In this document: positions 3,808 to 48,162 of the stretch, piece after piece | Layout: every line of letters begins with the position of its first letter | How positions within the stretch are numbered: the stretch's first letter is position 1 | Translations under genes and position numbers: made by a program | DNA from: a virus | Length of the DNA: 49,089 bases | Strand: one strand, 5' to 3' | Virus record (IMG/VR): IMGVR_UViG_3300019373_000002 | Notes under the pieces: model-generated | Database searches by the model: none | What the model saw: the letters and a program-made list of their open reading frames with translations, nothing else | What the model was told of the DNA's origin: nothing

Positions 3808-3965
3808 TATACTTCCGTAAGTGATTTTTTACACACGGTCTGTATATACTTCCGTAAGATAGCGGAAACGCCAGAAAACAAGCGGTTTTTGATACCGCAT
3901 GGCGGGCTTGTATGGGGTATTAACATTCCTACGAAATAGAGTATATAAAGTTATACTTCCGTAAG
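3808..3965 (+). promoter_or_regulatory. Cluster A of the TATACTTCCGTAAG motif (3 copies)
   Basis: Copies at 3808..3821, 3845..3858 and 3952..3965, all in the same orientation, in non-coding DNA upstream of the Rep-like gene. Confidence 0.7.
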
Positions 3966-4067
3966 ATATGGACAATAGGGAGATAAAAGACAGAGGGTGA
4001 GGGACACCCCGGCTTCTTCCAGATACCCAAAAGCGCATAGAGGATATGGGGACAATGGGGAATAGGA

Positions 4068-5096
4068 GTGCAGCGGGTGTTTATCAGAGAGAAGAAGACC
4101 GACTGCGCCGATTATAGGGAAGTTGACATTATACCCAGAACAGAAGAAGCGGAAATGGCAAGTAGGGGAAAGAGGGGGAAGCGCAGGAAAGCGCAGAAGC
4201 CCAAACAGAACGCCTTGAACGATAAGAACGCCAAACGGTATCTTGTACAGCTGGCAAATGGGAACTTCCATGCAGGGGATTTGCACACAACATTGACATA
4301 CAGTGCAGAGAACTTGCCGGGTACAGTCGAAGAAGCGGAAAAGATAGTAAATAACTATCTACGCCGGATTGCATACCGCAGAAAGAAGCTGGGCATTGAC
4401 CCATTGAAATATATTCTGGTCACTGAATACAAACTGGACAAAGACGGTGGGTGGCTGAAAAGGGTACACCATCACATCATCATGAATGGCGGCATGGACC
4501 GTGACGAAGTGGAAATGATGTGGACTGCGCAGCGTATCAACTGGAAAAGGGCAGACAGCCCGGACAAGCAAGCAGCGCAGGAGTACCGGGACAGCGTAAA
4601 GCGGATGGGCTGGGGCAATGCAGACCGTGTGCAGACGGATGATAACGGGATTGAAGCATTGTGCAAGTACATCACAAAGGACCCGCAGGGAAAGAAGCGG
4701 TACAGCAGTAGCCGAAACCTTGACCGCCCGGAAACAGAACGGACGGACAGCACGGAAAAGGCAGCAGCAGACCAGAACTTGTGGAAAGCAAGCCGCAATC
4801 TGGCAGAACCAACAGAGAAATGCAACGATTTCAAGTATAGCCGCCGCAAGGTAGAGCAACTGGCAAAGTCCCCGGACGGGGGATTGTCGGAGTTTGAAAA
4901 GATATATGCAGATTATGACATTGTATCTTGTGAACCTATCTACTACGAACAGACGGGCTGGCATATTTACTTGAAGATGTGGAAGAAGAAACCCCAGCAA
5001 AGGGGAAAACCAAAGGGAGGTAATGCAAATGCGAACAGCAGAAAGCAAAAGAGGTATGGCAAGGGTTGCAGCAGTGCGCCGCCGCCGGAAGATTAG
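4068..5096 (+). CDS. HUH-endonuclease-type replication initiator (Rep-like)
   Basis: 342 aa. HUH-like VHHHIIM and a downstream Y-x-x-K (LCKYITKD). The start codon is uncertain (GTG 4068 or 4077, or ATG 4156). Confidence 0.55.
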   Translation: MQRVFIREKKTDCADYREVDIIPRTEEAEMASRGKRGKRRKAQKPKQNALNDKNAKRYLVQLANGNFHAGDLHTTLTYSAENLPGTVEEAEKIVNNYLRRIAYRRKKLGIDPLKYILVTEYKLDKDGGWLKRVHHHIIMNGGMDRDEVEMMWTAQRINWKRADSPDKQAAQEYRDSVKRMGWGNADRVQTDDNGIEALCKYITKDPQGKKRYSSSRNLDRPETERTDSTEKAAADQNLWKASRNLAEPTEKCNDFKYSRRKVEQLAKSPDGGLSEFEKIYADYDIVSCEPIYYEQTGWHIYLKMWKKKPQQRGKPKGGNANANSRKQKRYGKGCSSAPPPED

Positions 5097-5841
5097 ACGC
5101 ATAATGAGCAATTACGGCAATTACATATTAGCGGCAGCAGTCGCAGTGGTTGTCATTGTATGTGTGTCTATTCTGGCGGCGGTTTTTAGTGCAAAGGGAA
5201 GCACGGCAGAAGCAGGAAGCACCGAAACGGCAGAGCCGGAAGAAATAAGGGTGGTTGTCATTGAAGCGGACAAGCCAGCCGGGGAAACAACGGCAGCAAG
5301 CATTGATGATACATACCCGTTCAACATTATGTCAAGGGACTGGGACGGTGAAGACCTTGTGGGCTTCAAGGCGTATCAGATACCGCATGAACTTGAAGTG
5401 GACGGCGGCAGTTTCCCAGATGTAATGCAGAAATACACATACATAATATGCAATCAAGCCGGAGTGGAATATACAAAGGTGCTGGCAATGATTGAGATTG
5501 AAAGCGGTTATCAGTGGGGAGCAGTCGGCAGCGGCGGTGACATAGGCTATATGCAGATAATGCAGAAATGGCATGAAGAACGCATGGAGAAGCTGGGCTG
5601 CGGCAACATATATGACCCGTTCCAAAATATCCGAGTGGGCGTTGATTACCTTGCAGAACTGCTGGAAAAGTACGGCGGCAGCTATGAAAAAGCGTTGACG
5701 GCGTACCAGTACGGACCATCCGGCGCATACAAATACTGGTTTTCTGCCAGGGTGAACGCTTCACCATACGCAAAAGAGGTGCTGGCAAAGGCTGCACGGA
5801 TTGAAGAAGAAATGGAGGTGCAAGCGGATGTTGGGGAATGA
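5029..5841 (+). CDS. Membrane-anchored lytic transglycosylase (SLT domain)
   Basis: N-terminal TM segment NYILAAAVAVVVIVCVSILAAVF. SLT motifs MIEIESGY, GYMQI and AYQYG. ATG 5029 lies 8 nt after GGGAGG. Confidence 0.75.
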   Translation: MRTAESKRGMARVAAVRRRRKIRRIMSNYGNYILAAAVAVVVIVCVSILAAVFSAKGSTAEAGSTETAEPEEIRVVVIEADKPAGETTAASIDDTYPFNIMSRDWDGEDLVGFKAYQIPHELEVDGGSFPDVMQKYTYIICNQAGVEYTKVLAMIEIESGYQWGAVGSGGDIGYMQIMQKWHEERMEKLGCGNIYDPFQNIRVGVDYLAELLEKYGGSYEKALTAYQYGPSGAYKYWFSARVNASPYAKEVLAKAARIEEEMEVQADVGE

Positions 5842-6196
5842 AAGCGGGCTGGAAAGACCGCAGCTGGGACAGCTGCTTGATGTGCTGATACCCAGCGACA
5901 GAATAAAGGTGTTTGACGGCGCAAGCGAGAAAGACCCGGTATTGTTCACGGGATTTGCTGCAAATTTCAATTACACACGGGAACACATAGACAGGTCCCG
6001 CAGGATTGCGAGGGTGGGGCTGGGTACAGACATTTTCCGCAAGGAAAAACCCGGAAGCTGGAACACTTTTGCACATTCAACGGCACTGGGCGAAGAAGTC
6101 CCGGTTGAAAGTATCAGCAATTTTGAATATGCGGACTTGCAGGAAATCATATACACAAGAATATTTCTGGAGGTGGCAGCGGATGAAACAGAATGA
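5828..6196 (+). CDS. Hypothetical protein
   Basis: In-frame ATG at 5828 follows a GGAGG RBS. It overlaps the preceding stop, as other genes in this operon do. Confidence 0.45.
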   Translation: MLGNESGLERPQLGQLLDVLIPSDRIKVFDGASEKDPVLFTGFAANFNYTREHIDRSRRIARVGLGTDIFRKEKPGSWNTFAHSTALGEEVPVESISNFEYADLQEIIYTRIFLEVAADETE

Positions 6197-6623
6197 ACGC
6201 AAAGAAGTTGTCATTTCACTTCACCCGGAATGGTGGGAGCGGATGAAAGCAGGGGAAAAGCTGCTGGAGATACGCAAGACCAGACCGCAGGGAAAAGGAC
6301 CGTTCACGGTCATGGTATATGTGACTGGCGGCGTGGGCGTTGTCGGTGAATTTGTCTGCGATTGCTTTTATCAGATACCCACAAAGCAAATACCCGTCTG
6401 GGCATTGCCAGAGGATGAAGAAAAGCCGCCGTACAATCTGGAAAAGGTAAGTTGTCTGACACGGCAGCAGTTGCAGCAGTACGCCGGGGACACGGACAAG
6501 CCGTTGTGGGGCTGGCATATAACAAAGCTGGTGGAATATGACACCAGATTGACGCTTTCTGATTTAGGCATTAAGACTGCGCCGCAGTCATGGTGCTATT
6601 CAAAGTTAGGAGGTGCAGCGTAA
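6183..6623 (+). CDS. ASCH (PUA-like) domain protein
   Basis: SLHPEWWERMKAGEKLLEIRKTRP resembles the ASCH N-terminal strand-helix motif. ATG 6183 follows a GGAGG RBS. Confidence 0.5.
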   Translation: MKQNERKEVVISLHPEWWERMKAGEKLLEIRKTRPQGKGPFTVMVYVTGGVGVVGEFVCDCFYQIPTKQIPVWALPEDEEKPPYNLEKVSCLTRQQLQQYAGDTDKPLWGWHITKLVEYDTRLTLSDLGIKTAPQSWCYSKLGGAA

Positions 6624-6902
6624 ATGGCAAGCAACAGAATGAGTGTAAAACGAAAGAAAGACAGAACAACATATTGCTATAACGGAAATTTAGAAGCAAC
6701 GATTAAAGCCAGCAAAGAAGAAGTGCAAAAGAAAAGGGAAAGTCAAGAGAGGGTCTTTCTCAAATGGCAATACGAAAAAGCAAAGAAAGCACATGAAGCA
6801 TACGAAAGACGGATTGAAGACCTTGACAGCTTTATCGAACTGGCAGAAAGAGAACTTGCAAAAGAACACAAAAAGGAGGGCGCAGCAGATGGAGAAAATT
6901 AA
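6624..6902 (+). CDS. Hypothetical coiled-coil protein
   Basis: 92 aa, rich in Lys and Glu. AGGAGG lies upstream. Confidence 0.45.
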   Translation: MASNRMSVKRKKDRTTYCYNGNLEATIKASKEEVQKKRESQERVFLKWQYEKAKKAHEAYERRIEDLDSFIELAERELAKEHKKEGAADGEN

Positions 6903-12736: not shown

Positions 12737-12890
12737 GTTATTAAAAGGGCTGGGGATATTCATTGCGGCTTGTGTGGGGCTGGGTGTGCTTTACATAGTG
12801 TTTATCATAGCCCGTGAAGTAGGCTGGATGGTGCAGCAGGAAAACCGCAAGCAGTACGAAGAAAAGCAGAAAGAGGGTGACGGCAAATGA
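12720..12890 (+). CDS. Small membrane protein (56 aa, below the ORF-track cutoff)
   Basis: My own translation: MAFLIELLKGLGIFIAACVGLGVLYIVFIIAREVGWMVQQENRK..GDGK*. It has one hydrophobic helix, and its stop overlaps the next ATG. Confidence 0.4.
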   Translation: MAFLIELLKGLGIFIAACVGLGVLYIVFIIAREVGWMVQQENRKQYEEKQKEGDGK

Positions 12891-13192
12891 TGAAGTCATT
12901 TTTTACGGCAAAGTGTCCGCTTGAACTGGGGGACACGGTGGCAATTTTTCCGGGAGAAACCGCAACACTTTATTATCTGCCGGACGGCGTGAAGCTGGAC
13001 AAGGAAACGGCAGAAAAAGCAGAACTGCACACGGTCACGGAGATTATGGCGCAGCATTTTGTGAAAGCCCAGAAAGTAGTATTTGCCTATCAGCTGGACG
13101 GTACAGAAGACTTTATGACCTATGATGTAAAGATACCAGTTGCGCAGATGGCGCAAGCTATGGAAGCGGGCGGTGGCGTAATACTTCCGTAA
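12887..13192 (+). CDS. Hypothetical protein
   Basis: 101 aa. Its last codons (ATA CTT CCG TAA) form the first copy of motif cluster B. Confidence 0.45.
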   Translation: MMKSFFTAKCPLELGDTVAIFPGETATLYYLPDGVKLDKETAEKAELHTVTEIMAQHFVKAQKVVFAYQLDGTEDFMTYDVKIPVAQMAQAMEAGGGVILP

Positions 13193-13263
13193 GTATAAAC
13201 ATTGTACAAATATACTTCCGTAAGATTGTGCATTATTCCGGGTTGCTTTTATACTTCCGTAAG
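13180..13263 (+). promoter_or_regulatory. Cluster B of the (T/A)ATACTTCCGTAAG motif (3 copies)
   Basis: Copies at 13180..13193, 13211..13224 and 13250..13263, all in the same orientation. The flanks of copies 2 and 3 extend the match to copies in cluster C. Confidence 0.7.
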
Positions 13264-13311
13264 TATATAATAAAGACAGTTAAAGAAGTACAGCAACGGA
13301 GGTACAAAGAT

Positions 13312-14673: not shown

Positions 14674-15435
14674 ATGAAAGTATTATCAATTATCAACTTA
14701 AAAGGGGGAGTGGCAAAGACCATTTCCAGCGTCAATATGGCGCACATTCTGGCAGCAGTCCACGGCTGCAAAGTGCTTCTGATTGACAATGACAAGCAGG
14801 GCAACGCCAGCAAGATTTTGAACCGCCACAGCTACAATAGCAAGGGAACGGCAGAGGTAATGACACAGAGGGGTGTTGACCCAGCAGAAGTTATCCAGCA
14901 CACAGATTATGACGGGCTGGACATTATCACGGCAAATATGAACTTGCTGACAGCTAACCTTGAAGTAATGCTGGACCAGTCAAGACCGCAGCAAACACGC
15001 TTCAAGAAGTTTCTGGAGGGCTTGCAGTCTGAATATGATTACACAATCATTGACAACGCCCCGGACATTAACATTTCAACCATAAATGCGCTGGTAGCGT
15101 CAAATGATGTAATGATACCGCTAACGATTGATGATTTTGCTATTGACGGGCTGGCAGAACTGAAAGAACAGATTGACAACACAAGGGAAGACCTAAACCC
15201 CGGCTTGCGCTTCTGCGGCTGCTTTGTTACCCAGTATGACCGCACCAACGAAGCGGACACGCAGGGTGAAGATTTCTTGAAGTCGCTTGAATATCCATTA
15301 TTTGCAACGCACATACGAAAGACACCAAAAATGAAGCCCAGCACATTTGCAAGAAAACCTATTCTGGAATATTCCAGCAGATGTGGCGCAGCGTATGACT
15401 ATAAAGCACTTGTTGACGAATATTTGAAAATGTGA
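14674..15435 (+). CDS. parA: ParA/Soj-family partition ATPase
   Basis: Deviant Walker A in NLKGGVAKTISS. 253 aa, the typical size. Confidence 0.85.
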   Translation: MKVLSIINLKGGVAKTISSVNMAHILAAVHGCKVLLIDNDKQGNASKILNRHSYNSKGTAEVMTQRGVDPAEVIQHTDYDGLDIITANMNLLTANLEVMLDQSRPQQTRFKKFLEGLQSEYDYTIIDNAPDINISTINALVASNDVMIPLTIDDFAIDGLAELKEQIDNTREDLNPGLRFCGCFVTQYDRTNEADTQGEDFLKSLEYPLFATHIRKTPKMKPSTFARKPILEYSSRCGAAYDYKALVDEYLKM

Positions 15436-15474: not shown

Positions 15475-16938
15475 ATGGCAAGCAATAACAAATTCAATCT
15501 GACACAGTTATTAAACCAGCGTTCAAAGGAAGCGGCAGCAGTTGCAGCAGCGGTGACGGAAAACACGGAAAAGGAAACCACAACAGAAGCACTGACCAGC
15601 ACGGCAGATATTTATGATTTGATACCGTCAAAAGACAATTTCTATTCAACGGACAGCGTGGAAGACTTGAAACAGTCCATTGAACTTCTGGGGATACTGC
15701 AACCGCTTCTGGTGACGAATGAAGAAGACGGAAAGCGGCGCATTATTGCCGGACACAGAAGACGGCTTGCAATCATGCAGCTGGTGGATGAGGGAAAAGA
15801 GCGTTTCCGATATGTGCCAATCATGGTGAAGCCCACAAAAGACGCAATCATTGACCGTCTGGCACTGATTATGACAAACCGTTTCAGAGAAAAGACGGAC
15901 TGGGAGAAAATGACAGAAGCACTTGAAACGGAAAAACTGGTGATGGAACTGAAAGAGCAAATGGACATTCCGGGGCGCACCCGTGATTTGCTTTCAGAGA
16001 TTGTGGACGCTTCCCCGGCGCAGCTGGGAAGATATAAGGCAATCAGCAACAATCTGACCCCGGAACTAATGGCAGAGTTTAAGGCTGGCAAAATCGGCGT
16101 GTCAATCATTTATGAAGTGTCCGGGATGGATAAGGAATGGCAGCTGCGGGCGTTGGAGATATACAGAAACAACGAAAACACATTAACGCTGCCGGACATT
16201 AAGACATTGAAGAAGCAGCAGGAAGACGCAAGGCAAATTCCGGGGCAACAGTCCATTGAAAGTCTGGCGGGGCAGCAGGACACGCAGGAAGCCACGCAGG
16301 AAGCCGCAGAAGCGGAAGAAATGCAGCAGGGCGAAGAAGTGACCACAGAAGCAGAAGAAGCCGCCACAGAGGGCGCAGGGAGCGCAGACGGGGCAGAATA
16401 TGTTGACCCGCAGCCAGAAACAATGACTTCTCTTTGTTACAGCTGCACGAAATATGAAGACTGCCACGACAAGAAATCAACCGTCACCAGCTGCAATGCC
16501 TATGTGGACAAGAAAGAAGCATACAAGACGGATGAACAGCGTTGCAAAGAAGAACAAGCAAAGATTGACGCTGAAACAAGAAAGAAGCTGCATGAACAGC
16601 AGCAGGAAGCGAAAATGGCGGCAGGTCCCGCAGAAAAGCAGCATGAGGAAATCAGACTGGCAGCCAGCAGATACAAGGAAATAACAAGCGGCGCACTTTC
16701 TTTCTTACTTCTGAAAAAGGATGGATACAAGCTGGGCGAAGAACTGACATTGCCGGAATATGCGGACGGAAAAGCAACCGGGCGCACGCTTGAAATCAAA
16801 GTGTCATATATCTGGGAAGACTGGACGGGGCTTGATGATGATTACTGCATTTTAGGCTTTCAGCTTATAAGCTGGACACCGCTTGAAGAAGCAGCGGGGC
16901 AGTATGCAGACCAGCCAACATTACAACCGGGAGCGTGA
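15475..16938 (+). CDS. ParB N-terminal-domain protein with an acidic linker, Cys cluster and C-terminal ASCH/DUF3850-like domain
   Basis: ParB box in GILQPLLV..IIAGHRRRLA. C-terminal IRLAASRYKEITSGALSFLLLKKDGYKLGEELTLPEY..TGRTLEIKVSYI resembles DUF3850. Confidence 0.7.
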   Translation: MASNNKFNLTQLLNQRSKEAAAVAAAVTENTEKETTTEALTSTADIYDLIPSKDNFYSTDSVEDLKQSIELLGILQPLLVTNEEDGKRRIIAGHRRRLAIMQLVDEGKERFRYVPIMVKPTKDAIIDRLALIMTNRFREKTDWEKMTEALETEKLVMELKEQMDIPGRTRDLLSEIVDASPAQLGRYKAISNNLTPELMAEFKAGKIGVSIIYEVSGMDKEWQLRALEIYRNNENTLTLPDIKTLKKQQEDARQIPGQQSIESLAGQQDTQEATQEAAEAEEMQQGEEVTTEAEEAATEGAGSADGAEYVDPQPETMTSLCYSCTKYEDCHDKKSTVTSCNAYVDKKEAYKTDEQRCKEEQAKIDAETRKKLHEQQQEAKMAAGPAEKQHEEIRLAASRYKEITSGALSFLLLKKDGYKLGEELTLPEYADGKATGRTLEIKVSYIWEDWTGLDDDYCILGFQLISWTPLEEAAGQYADQPTLQPGA

Positions 16939-16945: not shown

Positions 16946-17881
16946 ATGGTACAAATATTAGAACTGTTTGGCGGCATAGGGTCCCCACGGTGCGCATTGC
17001 GAAATTTGAACATACCGACAAAAGCCATTGACTATGTGGAGATAGACGAAAAGGCGGTGCGCACCTACAACGCAATGTTTGCAGAAGAATTGCAGTACAA
17101 GACACAAAGCGTTGTCGGATGGAACTTGAAGCCGGATATTTTAATACATGGCAGCCCTTGTCAAGATTTCAGCATTGCCGGACACCAAAAGGGTGCAGAC
17201 GAAGGAAGCGAAACAAGGTCAAGTCTGATGTGGGAAACAATACACATCATACAGAATATGGGAGAATGGAAACCACGCTTTGTTATCTGGGAGAATGTCA
17301 AGAATGTGTTATCAAAACACATGATAGCAAACTTTAACCGCTATTTGTCCGAAATGGAAAAGCTGGGCTACAAAAACGCATACAAGATACTTGACGCAAG
17401 GGATTTTGGATTGCCACAAGCCCGTGAAAGAGTTTTCACAATATCCGTGCTGGACGGTGAACAATTCTGCTTTGACGATTTGATAACAACGCCAATGAAA
17501 GACATTACAGAATTTCTTCTGGACAACGAAACGGTCCCACCAGTTTATGATGTGACACAGCCCAGTGTTTACAATGTGATAGGACATACCGGGATAAAGC
17601 GGGCAACGGTTATCAAGGAATTTGCATATACAATCACGACACGGCAGGACAGAACGCCAGCACAAGTGATTGACTGCGGAAACGGGCGTTACAGATACTT
17701 GACGGAATTAGAGTGTTGGAGGTTGCAGGGCTACACTGACGAAGATTATAAACGGGCAAAGGGAGTGCAGGAGCGTTCCGGGCGGTATTACATGGCGTTA
17801 TACAAACAAGCCGGAAACAGCATTGCCGTTCCGATTTTTGAAAGCATATTCAGAAAGATTATTTTGAATGAAACAGCATAA
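16946..17881 (+). CDS. DNA (cytosine-5) methyltransferase (intact)
   Basis: Motif I ELFGGIG, motif IV GSPCQDFS, motif VI IWENV, motif VIII GLPQARERVF, motif X AGNSIAVP. Confidence 0.9.
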   Translation: MVQILELFGGIGSPRCALRNLNIPTKAIDYVEIDEKAVRTYNAMFAEELQYKTQSVVGWNLKPDILIHGSPCQDFSIAGHQKGADEGSETRSSLMWETIHIIQNMGEWKPRFVIWENVKNVLSKHMIANFNRYLSEMEKLGYKNAYKILDARDFGLPQARERVFTISVLDGEQFCFDDLITTPMKDITEFLLDNETVPPVYDVTQPSVYNVIGHTGIKRATVIKEFAYTITTRQDRTPAQVIDCGNGRYRYLTELECWRLQGYTDEDYKRAKGVQERSGRYYMALYKQAGNSIAVPIFESIFRKIILNETA

Positions 17882-18142: not shown

Positions 18143-18613
18143 ATGGACAAAGAAAAGGTCATTGAAATTCTGGACTACTACAAAGAAATTGACGGGGAAA
18201 TTGCGTTTTACAGACGCACATTGACCGATTATGAAAATCAGTATTACAACACTATGGGTGCAATCGTTAGTGACGGTATGCCGCACGGCAAAAACCACAT
18301 ATCACGCATTGTGGAAAATGCCGCAATGAATATCCCGGACTATGTGCGGGAGATAATGAAAGACTATGCGGAACGCATAGAAACGCTGCAAAGGCTGAAA
18401 AGCCAGATATTGCAGGAAGTTTCCCGGCTGAAACTGAAAGAAAAGACCGTGATTTTTGACTATTACATCTACGGCATGAAATGGGAGCAAGTAGCGGAGC
18501 GCATACACTATTCAGACCGCCAGTGTAAAAACATCCGTGACACAGCCGTTGACAAGCTGGCAGAACGGTTTGAAAATAACGCCGCAATAAAGGGATTTAA
18601 GAAGATAGCGTGA
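18143..18613 (+). CDS. Sigma-70 region-4-like late transcription regulator (ArpU/RinA/Xpf-like)
   Basis: C-terminal HTH in FDYYIYGMKWEQVAERIHYSDRQCKNIRDTAVDKL. Its position just upstream of the terminase genes matches known late activators. Confidence 0.6.
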   Translation: MDKEKVIEILDYYKEIDGEIAFYRRTLTDYENQYYNTMGAIVSDGMPHGKNHISRIVENAAMNIPDYVREIMKDYAERIETLQRLKSQILQEVSRLKLKEKTVIFDYYIYGMKWEQVAERIHYSDRQCKNIRDTAVDKLAERFENNAAIKGFKKIA

Positions 18614-18656
18614 AAAATCTTTGCCCACCATTGCACACAATATTTTGCTATACTCA

Positions 18657-18676
18657 AAAGGGGCAAAAACCCCTTT
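18657..18676 (+). terminator. Weak hairpin after the regulator gene
   Basis: AAAGGGG-caaaaa-CCCCTTT: a 7-bp stem with only a short T run. Confidence 0.3.
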
Positions 18677-18740
18677 ACAATGCGTTGTTTGGAGACTGGG
18701 GCGGGCGATATTTGCGGAATTTACAAAGCCCCAAAATATT

Positions 18741-18754
18741 TATACTTACGGAAA
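18741..18754 (+). promoter_or_regulatory. Variant motif TATACTTACGGAAA upstream of the small terminase gene
   Basis: This 14-mer is identical to 48149..48162 and ends 49 bp before the start codon at 18804. Confidence 0.5.
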
Positions 18755-18803
18755 CAAGGCGAAGTGGAAAGAATGAAAACGAACGAAAAGAGGTGAAGCG
18801 GGG

Positions 18804-19625
18804 ATGGGAAGACCGAGAAACCCAGAGCGGGATTTATCCTTGCAGCGATACATTGAAGCTGGCGGCGAAATCAGCACCGCAGAACTGGCAAAAGCTGCCG
18901 GAGTGAATGAAAGCCGGATAAGAAAATGGAAATCAGAAGACAAGTGGGAAGAAGCCTTGAAAAAGAAGCCTAAAAAAAGGGGTGGACAAAAAGGCAATAA
19001 AAATGCGGCAGGGAAAACCCCGGCAAAAAATGGGAACAAAAACGCCGTGACACATGGTGCGTTTGCGCAAGCTGGCATTGAGGACATACCGCAGGAAAAG
19101 GCGGCAGAAATCCGGGCAATGACGGAAGCGGAAGCAATGCCAAAGATGATGGAAGAACTACAAGCCCTATATGTGCGCAAGGCATATTTAGAGGGCTTAT
19201 TGTCCGAGTACGAAAACCCGGAGAAAGCCCAGCCATTTTACACGGATAAAATAGTACACATGATTGTACCAAAGAGCGTGGAGGATAAGCAGAGCGAACA
19301 AGACACGGGCATTGAAGCAGGGCAAGCGACTGACCCGGAAGCAGGGGCAGGAAGTACAGAGCAATTCAAAACGGCTATGAAATCAATCATCAAGTCAAGC
19401 CCTTTTGACAGAGCAATGAAAGTGGAAGCAGAGTTGAACAAGTTGCATGGGCGTATCATCAAACAGCTGGACAGTATCAAGGCGTATGAGATGGAAGACA
19501 GACGCTTGCAGCTGGAAGAACGCAGACTTGAACTGACAAGACAGCGCATAACTGGTGAAATAGAGATTGACCCGGACGAACTGGACGAAGACGAAGCGGA
19601 CGGCGTGGACGGGCTGCCGGGGTAG
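18804..19625 (+). CDS. Terminase small subunit-like protein (N-terminal HTH, YjcR-like)
   Basis: GRPRNPERD..ISTAELAKAAGVNESRIRKWKSEDKW followed by KKRGGQKGNKNA..GNKNAVTHGAF. Confidence 0.65.
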   Translation: MGRPRNPERDLSLQRYIEAGGEISTAELAKAAGVNESRIRKWKSEDKWEEALKKKPKKRGGQKGNKNAAGKTPAKNGNKNAVTHGAFAQAGIEDIPQEKAAEIRAMTEAEAMPKMMEELQALYVRKAYLEGLLSEYENPEKAQPFYTDKIVHMIVPKSVEDKQSEQDTGIEAGQATDPEAGAGSTEQFKTAMKSIIKSSPFDRAMKVEAELNKLHGRIIKQLDSIKAYEMEDRRLQLEERRLELTRQRITGEIEIDPDELDEDEADGVDGLPG

Positions 19626-41438: not shown

Positions 41439-42497
41439 ATGGCGAATTTTGATGATTTAAGCATGGCGGTTGCTTCTTTTGGGGGCAACAACAAGGTCAT
41501 TTTTGACGATTTGGAAAAGCCGTCAATCATGGTCGGCGTTCCGAAGATGAAGTTTTCTGACATTATCACCGGGGGTACGCAGGATATAGCGGATGTATTC
41601 AAGGTTGATGGCGTAGAGCGTGATTTGCTTTACATTTCAAAGTACATCAACATTGTGGTGAATGACCGTGCATATTCACTGCCCATGAAAGACCCCAAAG
41701 CATATATCAACTTTGACCAGTCACTTGCGGCTTGCCGTAAAAAAGGTGCTGGCTGGGGGCTTACGCCAAACGCTTTACGGGGCGCAATCATTTTGTGGTG
41801 CAACCGCAACAACTTTTTACCAAGGGGCAACACAAACTGGGACGCAAGCTATGAAAAGGCGTATGAAAGGGGCGTAAACACATACATTGACGGAAACCAC
41901 GGCGGCGGCAGAACTGCAACTGGCAGCGGTCCCGCTACATGGTATCATGACGGCACGGTTGGCGGCATTGCCGATATGTGCGGTGATGTATGGGAATGGG
42001 TCGCTGGTATGCGCATTGTAAACGGCGAAATCCAGATTATCCCTTACGGCAACTGCATGAAGTTAGATTGCGACATGAGCGCAGATAGCACGGAATGGAA
42101 AGCGATTAAGCCGGATGGAACACTGGTTGACCCCGGAACTGCCGGAACGCTTCACTATGACTGGCAGAGCAGCAATATTGTTATCAATACGGCTACAAAT
42201 TCAACTTTCAACCAGAACAAGCCGTTTAATAGCATAGCGGCACAGTCCGGCGTGAACATTCCACAGATTTTGAAACTTCACGGAATTGTCAAAGATACCA
42301 ATGATATTTACGCCGCTACGGGACACCAGCATTATATCAATACTGACGGCGAGCGGCTTCCGTTCCGGGGGTCGAACTTCGGCGACGCTTCCAGCGGCGG
42401 TGTTGGTGCGTTGTCCTTGTACTACGCCCGTTCCGGCTCCTACAACTCCGTTGGCTTCCGCTCCGCTTATGATGAAAAACTGGCAACTGCAAACTGA
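41439..42497 (+). CDS. DGR target: receptor-binding protein with an FGE-sulfatase / C-type-lectin-fold domain and a C-terminal variable region
   Basis: 352 aa. Contains MCGDVWEWVAG (GxVWEW signature). The VR occupies codons for PFRGSNFGDASSGGVGALSLYYARSGSYNSVGFRSA, ending 29 nt before the stop. Confidence 0.85.
   Translation: MANFDDLSMAVASFGGNNKVIFDDLEKPSIMVGVPKMKFSDIITGGTQDIADVFKVDGVERDLLYISKYINIVVNDRAYSLPMKDPKAYINFDQSLAACRKKGAGWGLTPNALRGAIILWCNRNNFLPRGNTNWDASYEKAYERGVNTYIDGNHGGGRTATGSGPATWYHDGTVGGIADMCGDVWEWVAGMRIVNGEIQIIPYGNCMKLDCDMSADSTEWKAIKPDGTLVDPGTAGTLHYDWQSSNIVINTATNSTFNQNKPFNSIAAQSGVNIPQILKLHGIVKDTNDIYAATGHQHYINTDGERLPFRGSNFGDASSGGVGALSLYYARSGSYNSVGFRSAYDEKLATAN
42359..42468 (+). 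repeat. DGR variable repeat (VR)
   Basis: 110 bp aligned without gaps to 43084..43193. There are 15 mismatches, and all lie opposite TR adenines. Confidence 0.9.
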
Positions 42498-42506
42498 TAA
42501 ACTGCG

Positions 42507-42528
42507 GGGGCTTGCGACAGCAAGCCCC
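42507..42528 (+). promoter_or_regulatory. GC-rich hairpin downstream of the VR (9-bp stem, 4-nt loop)
   Basis: GGGGCTTGC-gaca-GCAAGCCCC, starting 9 nt after the target stop codon. No strong T-tract follows. Confidence 0.6.
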
Positions 42529-42569
42529 ATCCACTAAAAACAACAGAGAATATAAGCGGGGTGCGATAA

Positions 42570-43016
42570 GTGGAAACGATAGAAGAACAGTTGCCGCCGC
42601 TGGATGAAGTGCGGGACGAAGCAACGCAGGAAGACTTCAAGACGAAAAACAAAGTCTATGAATTATTGTTGTATGCCGGACCGCAGCTTGAACAATTCCC
42701 AAAGTCGCAAAGGGTGCTTGCAAACGAAATCCGGGAAACCATGCTGCAAATACTGCGGCTGGTTGTCACGCTGGAAAACAAGCACTACAAGAAAACCACG
42801 CTGGGAGAATTAGACAATGAAGTTGATGTGCTGCGGCATTTGGTGCGGCTTGCAGCTGACCCAAACTATATGGCGAACAAAAAGCCGTGCTTGCCCATGA
42901 AGAAATATGAGCAAATGTCAAAGAAAATCAATGAAATTGGCTGCATGATAGGCGGTTATTATAAGTCTTTGAATGGAAACCCGGCGAACGCCGGAAAACA
43001 GACAAAGAAGAAATAA
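42570..43016 (+). CDS. avd: DGR accessory variability determinant (Avd, four-helix-bundle protein)
   Basis: 148 aa, basic. FPKSQRVLANEIRETMLQILRLVV...LDNEVDVLRHLVRLA...INEIGCMIGGYYKSL matches the Avd pattern. GTG start. Confidence 0.8.
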   Translation: METIEEQLPPLDEVRDEATQEDFKTKNKVYELLLYAGPQLEQFPKSQRVLANEIRETMLQILRLVVTLENKHYKKTTLGELDNEVDVLRHLVRLAADPNYMANKKPCLPMKKYEQMSKKINEIGCMIGGYYKSLNGNPANAGKQTKKK

Positions 43017-43020
43017 AAGG

Positions 43021-43045
43021 CTGGGGCGTTCTGCCCCGGTTTTTT
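43021..43045 (+). terminator. Terminator-like hairpin between avd and the TR
   Basis: CTGGGGC-gttct-GCCCCGG (one G:U pair) followed by TTTTTT. Confidence 0.45.
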
Positions 43046-43083
43046 ATATACGGGAATAAGCCGTACAGTAGGGATTTAGCCGG

Positions 43084-43193
43084 TCCGTTCCGGGGGTCGA
43101 ACTTCAACAACACTTCCAACGGCGGTGTTGGTGCGTTGAACTTGAACAACGCCCGTTCCAACTCCAACAACAACATTGGCTTCCGCTCCGCTT
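43084..43193 (+). repeat. DGR template repeat (TR)
   Basis: Non-coding copy of the VR built from AAC codons (11 AAC, plus ACT and ATT; 24 adenines). Confidence 0.9.
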
Positions 43194-43454
43194 CACCCCA
43201 TTTTTGCCAGATAGACAGCGGCACAAGTGCCGTTGCCCCGTGCATTTGGGTTTAAGGGGTTTATTTCCGTTTCAAAAGGGACCACGGATGGGAACTGGCG
43301 AAAGAAGATTGAATTGCCGTGAAAACTGTTAGTAGGTTGATTGTGGACCGAAAGCCAGCAGCAATGCTGGATGTATAAGTTATGTTTGAAATGAGTAAAA
43401 CCAAAGTAGATTTGCACGGCACTTTTTATTTTATCAAGACGGGAGGGAAAAGGA
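43194..43454 (+). ncRNA. TR-RT spacer, presumed part of the DGR template RNA
   Basis: 261 nt with no credible ORF between the TR end and the RT start. In BPP-1 this region is the spacer RNA needed for priming. Confidence 0.5.
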
Positions 43455-44657
43455 TTGCAGACCATCAAAAACATTTTCCCTTTGATTTATGATTTTGAAA
43501 ATCTGCACAATGCCTATAAGAAAGCCATAAAATGCAAACGGTACAGACCGGATGTGATGGCGTACACGGACAAGCTGGAAGAAAATCTGATTGAATTACA
43601 GAATGAATTTATCTGGCTGACCTATGAAGTGGGACGCTATAACATTTTCTATGTGTACGAACCTAAAAAGCGCATGATTATGTCATTGCAATTCAAAGAC
43701 CGGGTGGCGCAACACGCAATATATGCGCAGCTGAACCCGTATTTTGAAAAACAGTTTATCTTTGACAGCTACGCTTGCAGGGTCGGCAAGGGAACGCACC
43801 GGGCAGTCAACCGCTTGTATGGATGGCTGAAACAGACGGACAGAAAGCCGCAGCGGTGGTATTATTTGAAGCTTGACATTTCAAAGTATTTTTACCGTGT
43901 TGACCATGAAATTTTAATGGGTATCTTGCAAAGGAAGATTGCTGACAAGGATTTGTTGCACATTCTTTCAGTGATTATAAATTGCGAAGACACCCATTTT
44001 GGTTTACCGCTGGGCGCAGATGTGGGCAATGTTGCCTATGATGAATTGTTGGGAGAAGTAGGGCTGCCGATTGGCAATCTTACTTCACAAATGTTCGCAA
44101 ACCTATATTTGAACGAACTTGACCAGCACTGCAAGCACCATTTGAAGCTGCGTTATTACATCCGATACATGGACGATATTATTATTTTGCACCCGGACAA
44201 AGTATTTCTTGAACGGGTAAAGCAGGATATAGCAGCGTTTCTGGATGAAAAGTTGCGGTTGCAGCTGAACAACAAAACTTGCATAAGACCAACAAGCATG
44301 GGCATTGAATTTGCCGGCTTCCGGGTATGGTCAACCCATATCAAGTTACGGAAGAAGACAGCAAAGAAACTGAAAAAGCGTTTGAAGTATATGTTTGGGG
44401 CATACGCTGCCGGGGAGATTGACCGGGCAACGCTTGACCGCAGTATTGCTTCATACAAGGGCATATTGCAGCACTTCAACAGCTACGGTCTGCGGCAAAG
44501 TCTGAATGGGCTATATGTCAAGGAAACGAAGAAAGAAAAAGCAGAAAAGAGGGCAGAAGCGGTGGAAAATGTAGAAGCGGTGGAAAATGTAGGGCAAGCC
44601 GCAGAAAGCCCGGAAAACAAGGAGGGACAGACAAAACATGGGAGTACAGACGATTGA
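43455..44657 (+). CDS. DGR-type reverse transcriptase
   Basis: 400 aa. LPIGNLTSQMFANLYLNELD (a DGR-clade signature) and YIRYMDDIIIL (YxDD). TTG start after GGGAGGG. Confidence 0.9.
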   Translation: MQTIKNIFPLIYDFENLHNAYKKAIKCKRYRPDVMAYTDKLEENLIELQNEFIWLTYEVGRYNIFYVYEPKKRMIMSLQFKDRVAQHAIYAQLNPYFEKQFIFDSYACRVGKGTHRAVNRLYGWLKQTDRKPQRWYYLKLDISKYFYRVDHEILMGILQRKIADKDLLHILSVIINCEDTHFGLPLGADVGNVAYDELLGEVGLPIGNLTSQMFANLYLNELDQHCKHHLKLRYYIRYMDDIIILHPDKVFLERVKQDIAAFLDEKLRLQLNNKTCIRPTSMGIEFAGFRVWSTHIKLRKKTAKKLKKRLKYMFGAYAAGEIDRATLDRSIASYKGILQHFNSYGLRQSLNGLYVKETKKEKAEKRAEAVENVEAVENVGQAAESPENKEGQTKHGSTDD

Positions 44658-45141
44658 CCCAGCAAGCGTCTGGGAGTTAGTGAAAACGCTTCTGGGATGG
44701 CTTGCAGGAATAGGGATTGTGATTGATTTAACGCCGGGGCTGAAATTCCAGCCCGTGCGCTGGCTTCTGTCACGGCTGGGAAATCTCATAAATGCGGACA
44801 TTAAGAAGCAACTTGACGGCTTGCAAAAGGAATTTACAGAATTTAAGGTGGACGCATGGCGCACGGAAATACTGGATTTTTCCGACAGTTGCATAAACCA
44901 TCAAAGGCACACGAAAGAACAATTTGACCATGTTATTGATACTCTGGACAAATACGAAAAGTATATCACGGAAAACAAGCTGAAAAACGGGCAAGTGGAT
45001 GTTGCCCATGAATACATTCTGGAGATATACAAGCAGTGTATGCGTGACAATGATTTTGCGCTGGACGAAGAAGACGAAAAAGCCAGAAAGAAAGCAGCGC
45101 AGACGGCACGAAGCAAAAGAAGTGGAGGTGACGCAAAGTGA
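44638..45141 (+). CDS. Hypothetical protein with an N-terminal TM helix, at the start of the lysis cassette
   Basis: 167 aa. TM segment LLGWLAGIGIVIDL. It overlaps the RT 3' end by 20 nt. Confidence 0.45.
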   Translation: MGVQTIDPASVWELVKTLLGWLAGIGIVIDLTPGLKFQPVRWLLSRLGNLINADIKKQLDGLQKEFTEFKVDAWRTEILDFSDSCINHQRHTKEQFDHVIDTLDKYEKYITENKLKNGQVDVAHEYILEIYKQCMRDNDFALDEEDEKARKKAAQTARSKRSGGDAK

Positions 45142-45518
45142 AGTATCTGTTATTTTTCATTATCGGATTTATGCTGGCGGTTGCATTGTTCATCATTTAC
45201 AATCTTCCGGCATTGCAGAAAAGGCGCAGGAGAAGAAAGCAGGAACTTGAAGAACACCCGGAAAGAAAAGGCGGCACAACAAAAGTGCTGCTTTTTTCAA
45301 TTCTCATAACATACTACATTGCATTTGCAGTGGGCGTGTGGGTTGTTGTCTTTCAAGATGTGTACCAGCTGCAAACGCTTCTGGCATTTGTCGGCGGCGT
45401 GACGGGTGCGGCGGTTGCTTTCTACTGCTGGAAAGCAAAAGCAGAAAACTTGCTGAAAATCAAAGCAGCAAACCCGGACTTGTGTGGGTCGCTGTCTGAT
45501 TTCTCAAATATGCAGTAA
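45138..45518 (+). CDS. Holin-like membrane protein (3 predicted TM helices)
   Basis: Three hydrophobic stretches in 126 aa. The GTG start overlaps the previous stop, and the gene sits just upstream of the endolysin. Confidence 0.5.
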   Translation: MKYLLFFIIGFMLAVALFIIYNLPALQKRRRRRKQELEEHPERKGGTTKVLLFSILITYYIAFAVGVWVVVFQDVYQLQTLLAFVGGVTGAAVAFYCWKAKAENLLKIKAANPDLCGSLSDFSNMQ

Positions 45519-45538
45519 ATGAAATGGAGGGATAGCAC

Positions 45539-46618
45539 ATGGCAAACACAGTTGACAAGGTAATAAATGTGGCAGCCGCAGAAGTGGGGTATCTGGAAAA
45601 ATCAGCGGCAGCATACAAGAAAAATCCGGCAATCCTTGACGAAAAAACAGCCGGGGCAGGGTCGGACAATTACACAAAATATGGGCGTGATATGCACAAA
45701 GTATATCCGGCTATTATGGACTTTCCGGCGTATTGGTGTGACGCATTTGTTGACTGGTGCTTTTATAAGGCATACGGCGTGGCAAATGCAAAAGGGCTGC
45801 TGGGCGGCAATTTTGATGATTACACGGTGGCGAGTGCGGGGCTTTACAAGAATAAAGGCGCACTGGGGACAGAACCCAGAAAGGGCGCACAAGTATTCTT
45901 CACAAGAAACGGGCAGACAAGCGGTTGCCACCATACCGGGCTTGTGTATGCGGTTGACGCAACATATTTCTACACGATTGAGGGCAACACATCCGGCGCA
46001 AGTGGCGTTATAGCAAACGGCGGCGGGGTGGCAAAAAAGAAATACAGCATATCAGCATACAAAGGCAAGGTCATTTTTGGTTATCCGAAATATGACGAAA
46101 GCACCGGGACCGGCACAAGCCAGACAGCAAAGAAGACCGCTGCGGAAGTGGCGCAGGAAATAGCAGACGGAAAAGGCGGCTGGGGCAACAATCCACAGAG
46201 AGCCGAAAAGCTGAAAGCGGCAGGGTACAACCCGGACGAAGTGCAAAAGCTGGTCAATGCGATTTATGCCGGACAGAAGACGCAGAGCAGCACCGGGACA
46301 ACCGCAAAGGCTGAAACGGTTTACACCGTGAAAAAGGGTGACACGCTTTCAAAGATTGCAGCAGCACACGGCACTACATGGCAGACGCTGGCAAGCTATA
46401 ACGGCATTGCAAATGCAAATAATATCAGCGTGGGGCAGAAAATCAAGATACCCGGCAGCGGGACCCGTACTTATACAGTGAAGCAGGGTGACAGCTTGTG
46501 GGCGATTGCTGAAAAGCAGCTGGGTGACGGTAGCCGATACAATGAGATTAAGACCTTGAACGAGCTGAAATCAAATGTTATCAACAAAGGGCAAGTGCTG
46601 AAATTGCCCGCAAAATAA
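45539..46618 (+). CDS. Endolysin: CHAP-type amidase/peptidase with two C-terminal LysM domains
   Basis: [10 protein letters not shown] (catalytic Cys context) and [15 protein letters not shown]. The two LysM repeats are [13 protein letters not shown].. and [13 protein letters not shown].. Confidence 0.8.
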
Positions 46619-46635
46619 ATCTGGAGGAAAGAAGA

Positions 46636-47193
46636 ATGGACAATAAAACACTTTTTACAATCATTTATGCAGTTGTGACAGTGGCGGCGTTCCTTGTCGG
46701 AAAATATGTTTTTCCGAAAGTGCCGCAGGATATGAAAGACAAGTTGAACCTACTTGCAGACTGGGCGGCAAAATTTGTTATCTGGGCAAAAGAATTTCTT
46801 GACAAGAAAACCGGGGCTGAAAAGATGGCTGCGGTTGTCGAACAGCTGAAACGCATTGCAGATGAAGCAGGAATTGAAGTGACAGAAGAACAGCTGAAAG
46901 CGATTGCACAAGCAGCCTATGAAGCAATGAAAGCAGGGGAAGCAGAAGCAATCCCAGCGCAGCTGGAAGCGGTCACAGCACAGCCAGCGGCAACGGTTGT
47001 GATTAACACCACAGCAGAGAAAGTGGCGATTGCAACAGATAATGTGCCGGATGGGGCATTGCAGGAAAACCCAGACGGGACAGTGAACACCTATGACGCA
47101 GACGGGAACAAAACGGGGACGATTTCAGCAGAAGAAGCGAAAAAAGCCGCCAGCAATGTTGGAGTAATTGTGGCAAAGGAAGACAACGAATAA
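46636..47193 (+). CDS. Holin, LL-H-family-like
   Basis: An N-terminal TM helix followed by LNLLADWAAKFVIWAKEF..KTGAEKMAAVVEQLK..GIEVTEEQLKAIAQAAYEAMK. Confidence 0.55.
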   Translation: MDNKTLFTIIYAVVTVAAFLVGKYVFPKVPQDMKDKLNLLADWAAKFVIWAKEFLDKKTGAEKMAAVVEQLKRIADEAGIEVTEEQLKAIAQAAYEAMKAGEAEAIPAQLEAVTAQPAATVVINTTAEKVAIATDNVPDGALQENPDGTVNTYDADGNKTGTISAEEAKKAASNVGVIVAKEDNE

Positions 47194-47233
47194 TTTGACC
47201 GCTGGAGGGGCTGACAGCCCCACAGACAGACGG

Positions 47234-47271
47234 AAAGACCGCAAGTGTAAAAATATATGCTTGCGGTCTTT
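47234..47271. terminator. Bidirectional rho-independent terminator between convergent genes
   Basis: AAAGACCGCAAG (47234..47245) pairs with CTTGCGGTCTTT (47260..47271) around a 14-nt loop. Its A-run and T-run ends let it work on either strand. Confidence 0.7.
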
Positions 47272-47296
47272 TTGCGTTTCTGGGCGTTTCTGGGGC

Positions 47297-47494
47297 TTAT
47301 TCTGCGGCGGGTATCAATTCATAGTCCGCAGCTTCTTTCTGGGATAATTCCCGGCTATACTCAATATACCCCCATGCTTCACGCTGGATTTCCGGGCAGA
47401 ACTGGCGGTGGTCGAAATTTACAATGTTTTCTGCGCCGTTCCGGGGATATGTGCCGATACTGACCGGGCGCATGATACTATAATACTTTTTCAT
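47297..47494 (-). CDS. Small hypothetical protein (65 aa), - strand cassette gene 3
   Basis: An AGGTGA RBS lies 4 to 6 nt upstream. No motif confidently recognised. Confidence 0.55.
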   Translation of the reverse strand: MKKYYSIMRPVSIGTYPRNGAENIVNFDHRQFCPEIQREAWGYIEYSRELSQKEAADYELIPAAE

Positions 47495-47509
47495 GATTTC
47501 ACCTACTTT

Positions 47510-47719
47510 CTAAACAATCTCAAAGTGTATATGTTCAAATACAAGCGTTGCCCCGGTATTTGGCGCACCGGGCAGCAGATATTCAAAGCAGAACGCTTCC
47601 CCAGCTTCACAAACCTTGCCGTCATGTTCGTGGCGGCGCATTGTCTTTCCGGCATAGTCCGGGTGATTGTTCACGATATTTGACCATTGTTTTTTGCTGA
47701 CCTTATACATTTTAGACAC
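47510..47719 (-). CDS. Small hypothetical protein (69 aa), - strand cassette gene 2
   Basis: AGGTG RBS. It shares the upstream context GAAAGTAGGTG with gene 3. Confidence 0.55.
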   Translation of the reverse strand: MSKMYKVSKKQWSNIVNNHPDYAGKTMRRHEHDGKVCEAGEAFCFEYLLPGAPNTGATLVFEHIHFEIV

Positions 47720-47772
47720 CTACTTTCTTTTTTTGATAGAGGGGCGGCGCAGCTGCCGCCCCGGTTGATGGT

Positions 47773-47997
47773 TTATGCTGAAAGCATAGGACACATTGAG
47801 TATTGACCCAGAGGAAACACCGTTTCAGTGTTTCTGTATTCAGAATATTTCTTGCTGATACGGCACTTCTTTGTTTCCTTGCCGTCTGAAAGTGTGACGG
47901 TCTGGGCAGTCCGTGCAATCACGGTGTATGTCCATGTGCAGTTGTGGTCACAAATGCTTGTCATGCTGTATGTGCTGCTGATTTCAAATTTCTTCAT
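47773..47997 (-). CDS. Small hypothetical protein (74 aa), - strand cassette gene 1
   Basis: A GGAGGT RBS lies 7 nt upstream of the ATG. Divergent from the RHH gene. Confidence 0.55.
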   Translation of the reverse strand: MKKFEISSTYSMTSICDHNCTWTYTVIARTAQTVTLSDGKETKKCRISKKYSEYRNTETVFPLGQYSMCPMLSA

Positions 47998-48048
47998 ATC
48001 CTTGTACCTCCGATTGATTTAATGCGTTGTTCCTTTAACTGTCTTTAT

Positions 48049-48162
48049 TATACTTCCGTAAGTATAGAAATACAACCCGGAATGTTGCACAAATATACTT
48101 CCGTAAGATTATGCAAAATTTATACTTCCGTAAGTTTGGGAAATGTGATATACTTACGGAAA
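48049..48162 (+). promoter_or_regulatory. Cluster C of the TATACTTCCGTAAG motif (3 copies) plus one variant TATACTTACGGAAA
   Basis: Motif copies at 48049..48062, 48094..48107 and 48121..48134; the variant is at 48149..48162. All lie in the divergent intergenic region between the - strand cassette and the RHH gene. Confidence 0.7.

Follow-up and report, generated by a model that had tools for sequence, protein, structure and literature searches.

The window analysed here is a stretch of 49,089 nucleotides from a virus (IMG/VR record IMGVR_UViG_3300019373_000002). It carries a replication gene (rep), an operon holding the partition genes parA and parB, and a gene for a small ribbon-helix-helix (RHH) protein, and at each of these three places lies a cluster of a short repeat, ATACTTCCGTAAG, for which we propose the RHH protein as the probable binder. 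A two-strand scan of the whole window returned exactly nine perfect copies, all on the + strand, starting at 3809, 3846 and 3953 (cluster A, upstream of rep), 13181, 13212 and 13251 (cluster B, upstream of the par operon) and 48050, 48095 and 48122 (cluster C, beside the RHH gene). This agrees with the initial annotation of this DNA, which was also right about the irregular spacings (37/107 bp in A, 31/39 bp in B and 45/27 bp in C) and about the T before most copies; it precedes eight of the nine, the exception being B1, which starts with A. That nine copies exceed chance was borne out, as none occurred in 100 dinucleotide-preserving shuffles of the window. With up to three mismatches, an extension of the scan that had been suggested, 29 matches were found where 6.6 were expected, which added two degenerate copies, TATACTTACGGAAA, one ahead of the RHH gene and one ahead of terS. 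According to a k-mer census the repeat is the only repeated non-coding word of the genome, and a search of the searchable literature for the motif string returned nothing but unrelated primer sequences.

The core had been described as a pseudo-palindrome. This holds for the surrounding element, an imperfect 18-bp palindrome with a CG centre (TATACTTCCGTAAGTATA), but not for the conserved unit inside it, the asymmetric 14-mer TATACTTCCGTAAG. When relatives were anchored on the 10-mer core CTTCCGTAAG alone (87 unique contexts), TATA flanked the core on the left in 80/87 and on the right in 26/87, and the element is therefore asymmetric. Three window copies are full near-palindromes (13181, 13251 and 48050); in full-palindrome copies, orientation is set solely by the two central asymmetric bases. 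The additional flank matches reported between clusters B and C were recovered for B2, whose flanks ACAAATATACTTCCGTAAGATTGTGCA match those of C2. The triplets had further been called intergenic, which needs correction at one position, since site 13181 overlaps the stop codon of the preceding open reading frame (ORF).

Bases 1-123 are identical to 48967-49089, and this 123-bp terminal overlap implies a unit of 48,966 bp, either a closed circle or a terminally redundant molecule. Across the junction, clusters C and A lie ~4.6 kb apart and flank an integrase/SWIM/XRE module, and cluster B follows ~9.2 kb beyond. On a circular unit, all clusters are thus confined to one ~14-kb early-gene arc instead of being spread around the genome, as had first been thought.

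Several sites coincide with promoter-like sequences. B3 (13250-13263) occupies the 17-bp spacer of the par-operon promoter and abuts its -10 hexamer; the operon orf13312-orf13501-orf13913-parA-parB-dcm follows, its first gene starting 41 bp on. C1 (48049-48062) occupies the spacer of a leftward promoter and overlaps the -10 hexamer; the C1 and B3 promoters are near-identical from -45 to +20, but inverted relative to each other. C3 and C4 overlap the putative RHH promoter, whose extended -10 element TGaTATACT also precedes the RHH gene of prophage L120 in the same arrangement. Ahead of rep, a promoter-like pair can be read from the sequence (TTAACA at 3920-3925, 18 bp, TATAAA at 3944-3949), and A3 begins just past it. 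A 17-pair hairpin (AAAGCCCGTTG…CAACGGGCTTT, 3701-3738), situated between cluster A and the ORF that ends at 3657, has a T-rich tail on the - strand and may be a terminator insulating the rep control region.

A consensus promoter/terminator scan called none of the proposed window promoters, whose -35 hexamers match the consensus at only 3/6 positions where the tool required 4/6, and this counts against them. The promoter claim therefore rests on the register of sites and TATAAT hexamers in the relatives and on a perfect promoter in a conjugative element. Among 248 unique site contexts across relatives, a perfect TATAAT was found at the fixed offset +13 in 85 and, on the opposite strand, at offset -5 in 27, and ~45% of the contexts are thus joined to a perfect TATAAT in fixed register; TTGnnn stood 17 bp upstream in 24 contexts. 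The word AAGTATATAAT was common to 12/12 diverged par loci, and in the conjugative element (locus L123) a perfect TTGACA-17-TATAAT promoter contains the site in its spacer. Because of this fixed-register fusion to TATAAT, often within a 17-bp spacer, the sites are very probably repressor operators embedded in promoters. A protein in the spacer or over the -10 hexamer would block RNA polymerase, from which we infer repression as the direction of control. In a 92.7-kb viral contig (L404 2400-3800), which appears to belong to a much larger, different phage and has no RHH gene within the 5 kb examined, TTGACA…TATAAT promoters hold a variant operator, TACGGTAGTATA, in their 17-bp spacer.

The closest match in the phage database, and the only one, was Clostridium phage Saumur, which matches 7% of the first 20 kb at 76% identity; a plasmid database search gave no match. 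Enterocloster clostridioformis YL32 carries Saumur as a prophage that can be induced (PMC10197239). The phage has the identical 13-mer at the same three places, namely beside an Arc-like gene, upstream of the ParA/ParB operon and upstream of Rep, and its position 2830 has the same design as the leftward C1 promoter of the window. A 14-mer scan of viral contigs yielded ~50 true relatives with the same layout. In every one of them, a triplet separates the orf12887 homologue from the par operon, and three to seven sites surround the RHH gene. Upstream of Rep, one to three sites are found in relatives (Saumur 43895, L047, L048), and the near-identical relative L115 keeps a three-site cluster A with the same 37/107 spacing. 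The triplets thus hold the same positions in homologous phages, which the initial annotation had named as a check. Its emphasis on all copies sharing one strand, however, did not generalise. Orientation is mixed at the same positions in Saumur and most relatives, the same-strand arrangement is limited to the window and its closest kin (L035, L115), and strand was rejected as a functional feature on these grounds.

An 18-mer scan of 185,579 genomes returned ~43 hits within Clostridia (Lachnospiraceae, Oscillospiraceae and others), of which almost all belong to the same prophage family, and ~12 further hits in unrelated phyla, as chance predicts. One of the relatives was found inserted into a chromosomal contig of 262 kb, with host genes beyond its RHH end. 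The phage family keeps rep and parAB although it integrates into the chromosome via a serine recombinase.

Viral relatives often carry a one-mismatch site ~47 bp before terS, immediately preceded by a hairpin of terminator type with its T-run; L057 and L143 have the exact 14-mer there, and the copy has decayed in Saumur, L153 and L155. Since this site is not universal, it is weaker evidence. Downstream of the RinA/ArpU-like gene (window 18628-18760; relatives L012, L018, L057 and L143), a conserved CCATTGCAC-N12-TATA(A/C)T box is followed by the terminator-like hairpin with T-run and then by terS. With 12 bp, its spacing falls short of that of an ordinary σA promoter, and the box looks like a late promoter dependent on a sigma-like factor, with an attenuator or antitermination step.

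With three copies upstream of rep and a degenerate copy between the RinA-like gene and terS, the sites might be taken for Rep iterons or origin elements, or for promoter elements read by the RinA/ArpU-like sigma-like factor. Both are hardly credible, because six of the nine copies lie away from rep/ori instead of being confined to it, and because the family of the Rep protein (REP_ORF2-G2P, PF23343) consists, as we take it, of rolling-circle (HUH) initiators. As to the RinA-like factor, the upstream flank has no conserved -35-like partner and sites lie inside ordinary TTGnnn-17-TATAAT promoters. Homologues of Rep and of the RinA-like factor are both absent from the site-bearing loci of a conjugative element.

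The linkage of the motif to the RHH gene was determined in 65 loci picked from viral contigs by RHH peptide patterns alone, ignoring the motif. Within the 250 bp ahead of the RHH gene, 61/65 loci had one or more canonical sites and 55/65 had three or more, which is where the sites of an autoregulator are expected. The remaining 4/65 loci have a variant motif triplet in the same architecture, together with altered residues in the RHH arm or β-strand. The site density is highest at the RHH gene rather than at parB. Two RHH paralogues ~1.5 kb apart, 72% and 43% identical to the window protein, are found on contig IMGVR_UViG_3300045988_033235 (L034 950-1162, L099 1388-1549), with motif sites between and beside them.

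The motif also accompanies the RHH gene outside the phages. In the conjugative-element loci L123-125 and L182, which encode a type IV secretion system, a relaxase and a coupling protein, an RHH homologue (P0110/P0111, 58% identical) has the motif on both sides, its neighbours being PrgI, a VirB4-like ATPase, the relaxase and the coupling protein. The motif is located 9 bp before the TATAAT upstream of the RHH gene, an exact copy lies in the next downstream promoter, and a third copy is degenerate. The families of ParA, ParB and Rep gave no hit in the gene tables of these loci (±10 kb). According to tblastn, these loci and L138, an unrelated Oscillospiraceae locus with two sites in the RHH promoter, contain a credible homologue of only one window ORF, the RHH gene; one other hit there (E-value 5.7e-4), to a window ORF antisense over orf47773, was judged spurious. 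The nucleotide similarity between window and conjugative element comprises 68 bp of RHH coding sequence and the 18-bp site, nothing more.

Motif and protein further appear to change in concert. In the N30K lineage (L242/243, P0094, P0086), TATACTACCGTA is present at all or nearly all sites, including 6/6 in L405: L242/243 combine the arm AAKKKYRDKVYDR with TATACTACCGTA sites, and the sites read TATACTACCGTAA in 6/6 cases for P0094 and mostly so for P0086. L248/249, with the arm and strand AQQKAVHKYVKANYDRMELTVPKG, carry ATTCCCGTAAATA three times in the same architecture. Scans with variant motifs mostly returned single chance hits, and the contigs carrying variants are so short that neither par nor rep falls within them. 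The initial proposal of an operator set for the adjacent RHH protein is therefore backed by synteny, by the promoter register, by the joint occurrence of motif and RHH gene in a conjugative element and by the concerted motif change, and the RHH protein is, judging from these sequence comparisons, the likely binder of the 14-mer.

In the RHH protein, an N-terminal arm, AATxAKNKYRDKxYDR, is followed by a β-strand (R39-E41-L-A-L-P45) and helices 48-58 and 63-79, the strand-then-two-helices order of the RHH fold; the AlphaFold2 model shows an extended segment 39-47 and the same two helices. The protein matches a PHROG Arc-like repressor (E-value 7e-6), and its profile hits AmrZ (E-value 0.0099), Arc (E-value 0.022) and the CopG family in the PDB. 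The top Foldseek hits, Arc, CopA-SO, AmrZ and CopG, are all RHH proteins (Arc probability 0.98, TM score 0.75). A profile search found 2,764 protein clusters at an E-value ≤ 0.001, and the best 120 of these 2,764 matches all have the same arm and strand. The N-terminal extension is basic. Arm and β-strand form the most conserved stretch of the family (invariant G22, A25, T26, K29, K31, R33, Y37, D38, R39, E41, P45, K46 and G47), a pattern that fits the expectation for a protein with an invariant DNA target. One homologue carries the database name 'HicB family antitoxin'. A toxin-antitoxin pair formed by the RHH gene and the overlapping downstream ORF was rejected as the main role, as the sites extend to the promoters of rep and par and the downstream gene lacks conservation. 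In L163 (~4420-4820) and L152 (~5060-5390), the 18-mer lies ahead of a toxin gene pair of the RelE/ParE-like type; the remains of a decayed RHH gene (…RDKHYDRAEMTLLRGMH…) just upstream in L163 suggest a prophage relic, its operator now fronting a toxin-antitoxin module.

Of the other window proteins, ParA, ParB, Rep, the RinA-like factor and the orf12887 product are, like the RHH protein, kept alongside the motif. The integrase, the SWIM protein, the XRE-type repressor and orf13312/13501/13913 have no tblastn homologue in Saumur, where the motif is identical, and the XRE-type repressor was rejected as binder for this reason. The orf47773 product, 77% conserved with Saumur, was rejected as well, its homologues having been detected in only part of the RHH loci and in none of the conjugative-element loci.

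Several points weigh against the RHH protein as the binder. The fold matches are individually weak for a protein of 89 amino acids (PDB E-values 0.01-0.02, Foldseek E-values > 0.1). Q30 variants (P0155, L314) have canonical or mixed sites, hence there is no simple code, and the covariation comes from two or three lineages, that is, from few independent events. Within phages, RHH and ParB always co-occur and are therefore not separable there, and the conjugative-element contigs are covered to ±10 kb, so that a ParB may lie further out. The ParB protein itself looks like a genuine CTP-type ParB, having a conserved N-terminal peptide (FNLTxLLNxRSK) and an HTH-like (helix-turn-helix) segment, and neither the genome nor 12 diverged par loci offered another conserved parS candidate: the k-mer census, together with a listing of 16-bp palindromes, turned up single palindromes (15363 and 16860) that relatives lack, and the words common to 10-12 of the diverged par loci were all derived from the motif. 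Lastly, a perfect 18-mer, TATACTTACGGAAGTATA, with a TATAAT lies ~20 bp before a chromosomal PcrA/UvrD-like helicase gene without an RHH gene nearby.

Some of these points would fit ParB as the binder, the sites being its parS or operators, at which it would load for partition with ParA and silence nearby promoters in the manner of KorB and SopB. One triplet always stands at the promoter of the operon holding parA-parB, and the site is of parS-like size, a 16-18 bp near-palindrome with a CG centre. The ParB_N domain (PF02195, E-value 2e-9) contains a GxRR box, iiaGHRRRla, which aligned to Spo0J/ParB/Noc structures. Further along the protein, the segment GRTRDLLSEIVDASPAQLGRYKAISNNL is conserved and resembles a ParB HTH, but Pfam is silent on it and the NCBIfam match ends at model position 115/186. 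The C-terminal DUF3850 is an ASCH/PUA-like domain, and a C5 methylase gene follows.

We nevertheless consider ParB as binder quite unlikely. The motif occurs at RHH homologues in the conjugative-element loci and in L138, where the gene tables (±10 kb) and tblastn gave no ParA or ParB, hence ParB is not always in view where the motif is found, and the sites are concentrated at the RHH gene. In L165 and L174, the putative ParB recognition helix reads SRYEKI and GRMEAI, respectively, instead of GRYKAI, whereas the triplets are unchanged. An asymmetrically conserved site is unusual for a symmetric ParB dimer. Moreover, the family consists of prophages that integrate into the chromosome and therefore not of established phage-plasmids like N15; nothing specific supports the parS sites for ParAB as in N15 that the initial annotation had offered as its alternative.

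The helicase site bears on a different alternative, in which a host (Lachnospiraceae) transcription factor binds the sites and is exploited by several mobile elements, the RHH adjacency being incidental. The same site is indeed present in different types of mobile elements, and the helicase sites were found in an uncultured Lachnospiraceae metagenome-assembled genome (L137 ~2713) and in Roseburia porci (L177 ~5311); the helicase, of 765 aa, is a putative assignment from N-terminal motifs only. This explanation appears highly improbable, since the genome scan placed the 18-mer, as far as Clostridia are concerned, almost exclusively beside RHH genes or within the one prophage family, since variants of the motif go with variants of the RHH sequence, and since none of the known boxes of Firmicute regulators (LexA, CcpA cre, CodY, Spo0A or Rex) is, to our knowledge, matched by the motif.

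The positions of the sites, their promoters and the surrounding genes are given in Table 1. In addition, a diversity-generating retroelement is present at 41439-44657, with a reverse transcriptase (43455..44657) and an Avd-like gene (42570..43016). Its template repeat (43084-43193) and the variable repeat (42359-42468), the latter located in the 3' end of gene 41439..42497, share 86% identity, and the differences fall mostly at template adenines.

Table 1. Repeat sites, associated promoters and neighbouring genes in the window, in order of position.
Feature	Position	Strand	Remarks
Large serine recombinase	162..1619	-	
SWIM protein	1721..2548	-	
XRE-type HTH protein	2562..3086	-	
Operator A1	3808..3821	+	TATACTTCCGTAAG; distal site upstream of rep
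Operator A2	3845..3858	+	upstream of rep
Operator A3	3952..3965	+	begins 3 bp past the promoter-like pair, ~100 bp before rep start
Rep	4068..5096	+	PF23343 REP_ORF2-G2P; presumed target of cluster A; 60-82% identical in relatives
Operator B1	13180..13193	+	full near-palindrome; its TAA is the stop codon of ORF 12887..13192
Operator B2	13211..13224	+	middle site; flanks kept in relatives
Par-operon promoter	13243..13271	+	TTGCTT, 17 bp, TATAAT; operator B3 inside spacer
ParA	14674..15435	+	small Walker ATPase, 253 aa, without N-terminal DNA-binding domain
ParB	15475..16938	+	ParB_N with GHRRR box, HTH-like segment, C-terminal DUF3850
C5 methylase (dcm)	16946..17881	+	
RinA/ArpU-like factor	18143..18613	+	
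Degenerate site	18741..18754	+	TATACTTACGGAAA; between RinA/ArpU-like gene and terS, ~50 bp before terS
TerS	18804..19625	+	
DarA_C-like gene	47297..47494	-	in leftward cassette with orf47773 and orf47510
Leftward promoter	48047..48075	-	TTGTAT, 17 bp, TATAAT; upstream of orf47773, orf47510 and the DarA_C-like gene (47297..47997)
Operator C2	48094..48107	+	middle site of divergent control region
Operator C3	48121..48134	+	over -35 position of the putative RHH promoter
Putative RHH promoter	48146..48162	+	extended -10 TGaTATACT (48146-48154); overlaps degenerate operator C4
Degenerate operator C4	48149-48162	+	TATACTTACGGAAA; 29 bp before RHH start codon
RHH protein	48191..48460	+	89 aa, Arc-like, proposed binder

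If the RHH protein binds these sites, as we think likely, it would probably do so as a dimer of dimers, the β-ribbon and the conserved N-terminal arm together reading the 14-18 bp site. The sites inside strong σA-type promoters would be B3 for the par operon, C1 for the leftward cassette, C3/C4 for the RHH gene itself and A3 for the rep region, and A1, A2, B1, B2 and C2 may act as auxiliary sites for cooperative occupancy. A single autoregulated RHH repressor would then jointly hold down replication, partition and methylation, accessory genes and its own expression. Upon entry of the DNA into a cell free of RHH protein, a burst of expression followed by shut-down would be expected.

A probable regulator-operator pair with a regulon of four to five promoters is thereby defined for a family of temperate gut Clostridia phages that is large and uncharacterised; Saumur, which belongs to it, can be induced in a cultivable OMM12 strain. 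The RHH-operator system is widespread in phages and conjugative elements of these bacteria. Specific predictions are the exact 14-bp operator, promoters that are derepressed without RHH, and arm residue 30 versus operator position 7 as the candidate specificity determinant; binding by the RHH protein predicts that the N30K protein prefers TATACTACCGTA over TATACTTCCGTA. An operator in the 17-bp spacer of a consensus promoter is a tight, portable design, which could serve as a genetic switch in Lachnospiraceae.

One nearly invariant RHH-operator pair might even be a regulatory currency shared among Saumur-like myophages, conjugative elements and other contigs of Lachnospiraceae and Oscillospiraceae, and lead to immunity or incompatibility across elements, although we hold this to be unlikely. 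A resident RHH protein would in that case repress the replication, partition and early promoters of incoming elements with the same operators, and the N30K/TATACTACCGTA variants would be escape types. The PcrA/UvrD-like host gene would be wired into the network; PcrA is needed by rolling-circle Rep proteins, the presumed type of the Rep in this phage. Such a role would bear on the interference between phages and integrative and conjugative elements in the gut.

Among known systems, P1 C1 is a large lysogeny repressor, not of the RHH type, with asymmetric operators at many promoters of a temperate phage; unlike there, the variable XRE-type repressor module is separate here and is not conserved with the motif. 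KorB with its OB sites in RK2 and SopB with its sites in N15 bind short palindromes dispersed at replication, partition and other promoters, the binder being of the ParB family. The dispersed short palindrome at promoters and the parA-parB pair are common to these systems and the window, but here the motif follows the RHH gene into elements without ParB in view, and the family integrates via a serine recombinase and is not a plasmid.

Arc, AmrZ and CopG are the best fold-level matches. Arc and Mnt of P22 (immI) bind operators of ~18-21 bp as dimers of dimers, between or within divergent promoters, and regulate their own expression. AmrZ, a Pseudomonas protein, also has an N-terminal arm, which was aligned to that of the window protein, and the title of PDB entry 3qoq gives an 18-bp site for it. 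In contrast to Arc and AmrZ, the arm is here long and the most conserved part of the protein, and the sequence similarity is marginal (E-values 0.01-0.02). The control exerted by Arc and Mnt is confined to a single local region; here, three to four promoter regions are concerned, and they are dispersed.

The functionally closest system is ω of the inc18 plasmid pSM19035. The sites of this RHH protein overlap the promoters of copS, δ (parA) and ω itself (PMC9499535), which results in coordinated, autoregulated repression (PMC9499535, PMC4627068). Both are small RHH proteins of Firmicutes with an N-terminal extension, and in both cases sites are found at the replication, parA and own promoters. 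No sequence relationship to ω is detectable, the best PDB profile hits being AmrZ and Arc. The ω protein reads 7-10 contiguous 7-bp heptads, whereas single elements of 14-18 bp stand here 27-107 bp apart; ω doubles as the centromere-binding ParB, whereas here a separate ParB_N protein follows parA and the RHH gene is far away; and the RHH protein and sites of the window type also occur without ParA.

The likeness extends to a possible dual role, with the RHH protein repressing at its sites while the RHH-DNA complex is also the centromere that stimulates ParA, the ParB_N protein having another job. The ω-like layout of the sites at promoters (PMC9499535 for ω), the small ParA lacking an N-terminal DNA-binding domain and the basic RHH extension agree with such a role. 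We consider it very unlikely, however, because ω needs at least four contiguous heptads for ParA activation (PMC9499535) and the 14-mers here are isolated, because the RHH gene lies ~16 kb from parA, which is directly followed by a ParB with a conserved N-terminal peptide, and because the RHH arm is equally conserved in the conjugative-element homologues without ParA nearby, so that the arm is more likely a DNA-contact element. Of the features of type Ib partition systems, the sites at parA, replication and own promoters are present, and the RHH-parA adjacency and the contiguous-repeat centromere are absent. Because of the site architecture, the separate ParB next to parA and the occurrence without ParA, the system was not filed as a type Ib centromere-binding protein. 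It is most likely an undescribed family of a known control type, an autoregulated RHH global repressor (ω/Arc-like) with dispersed, promoter-embedded operators.

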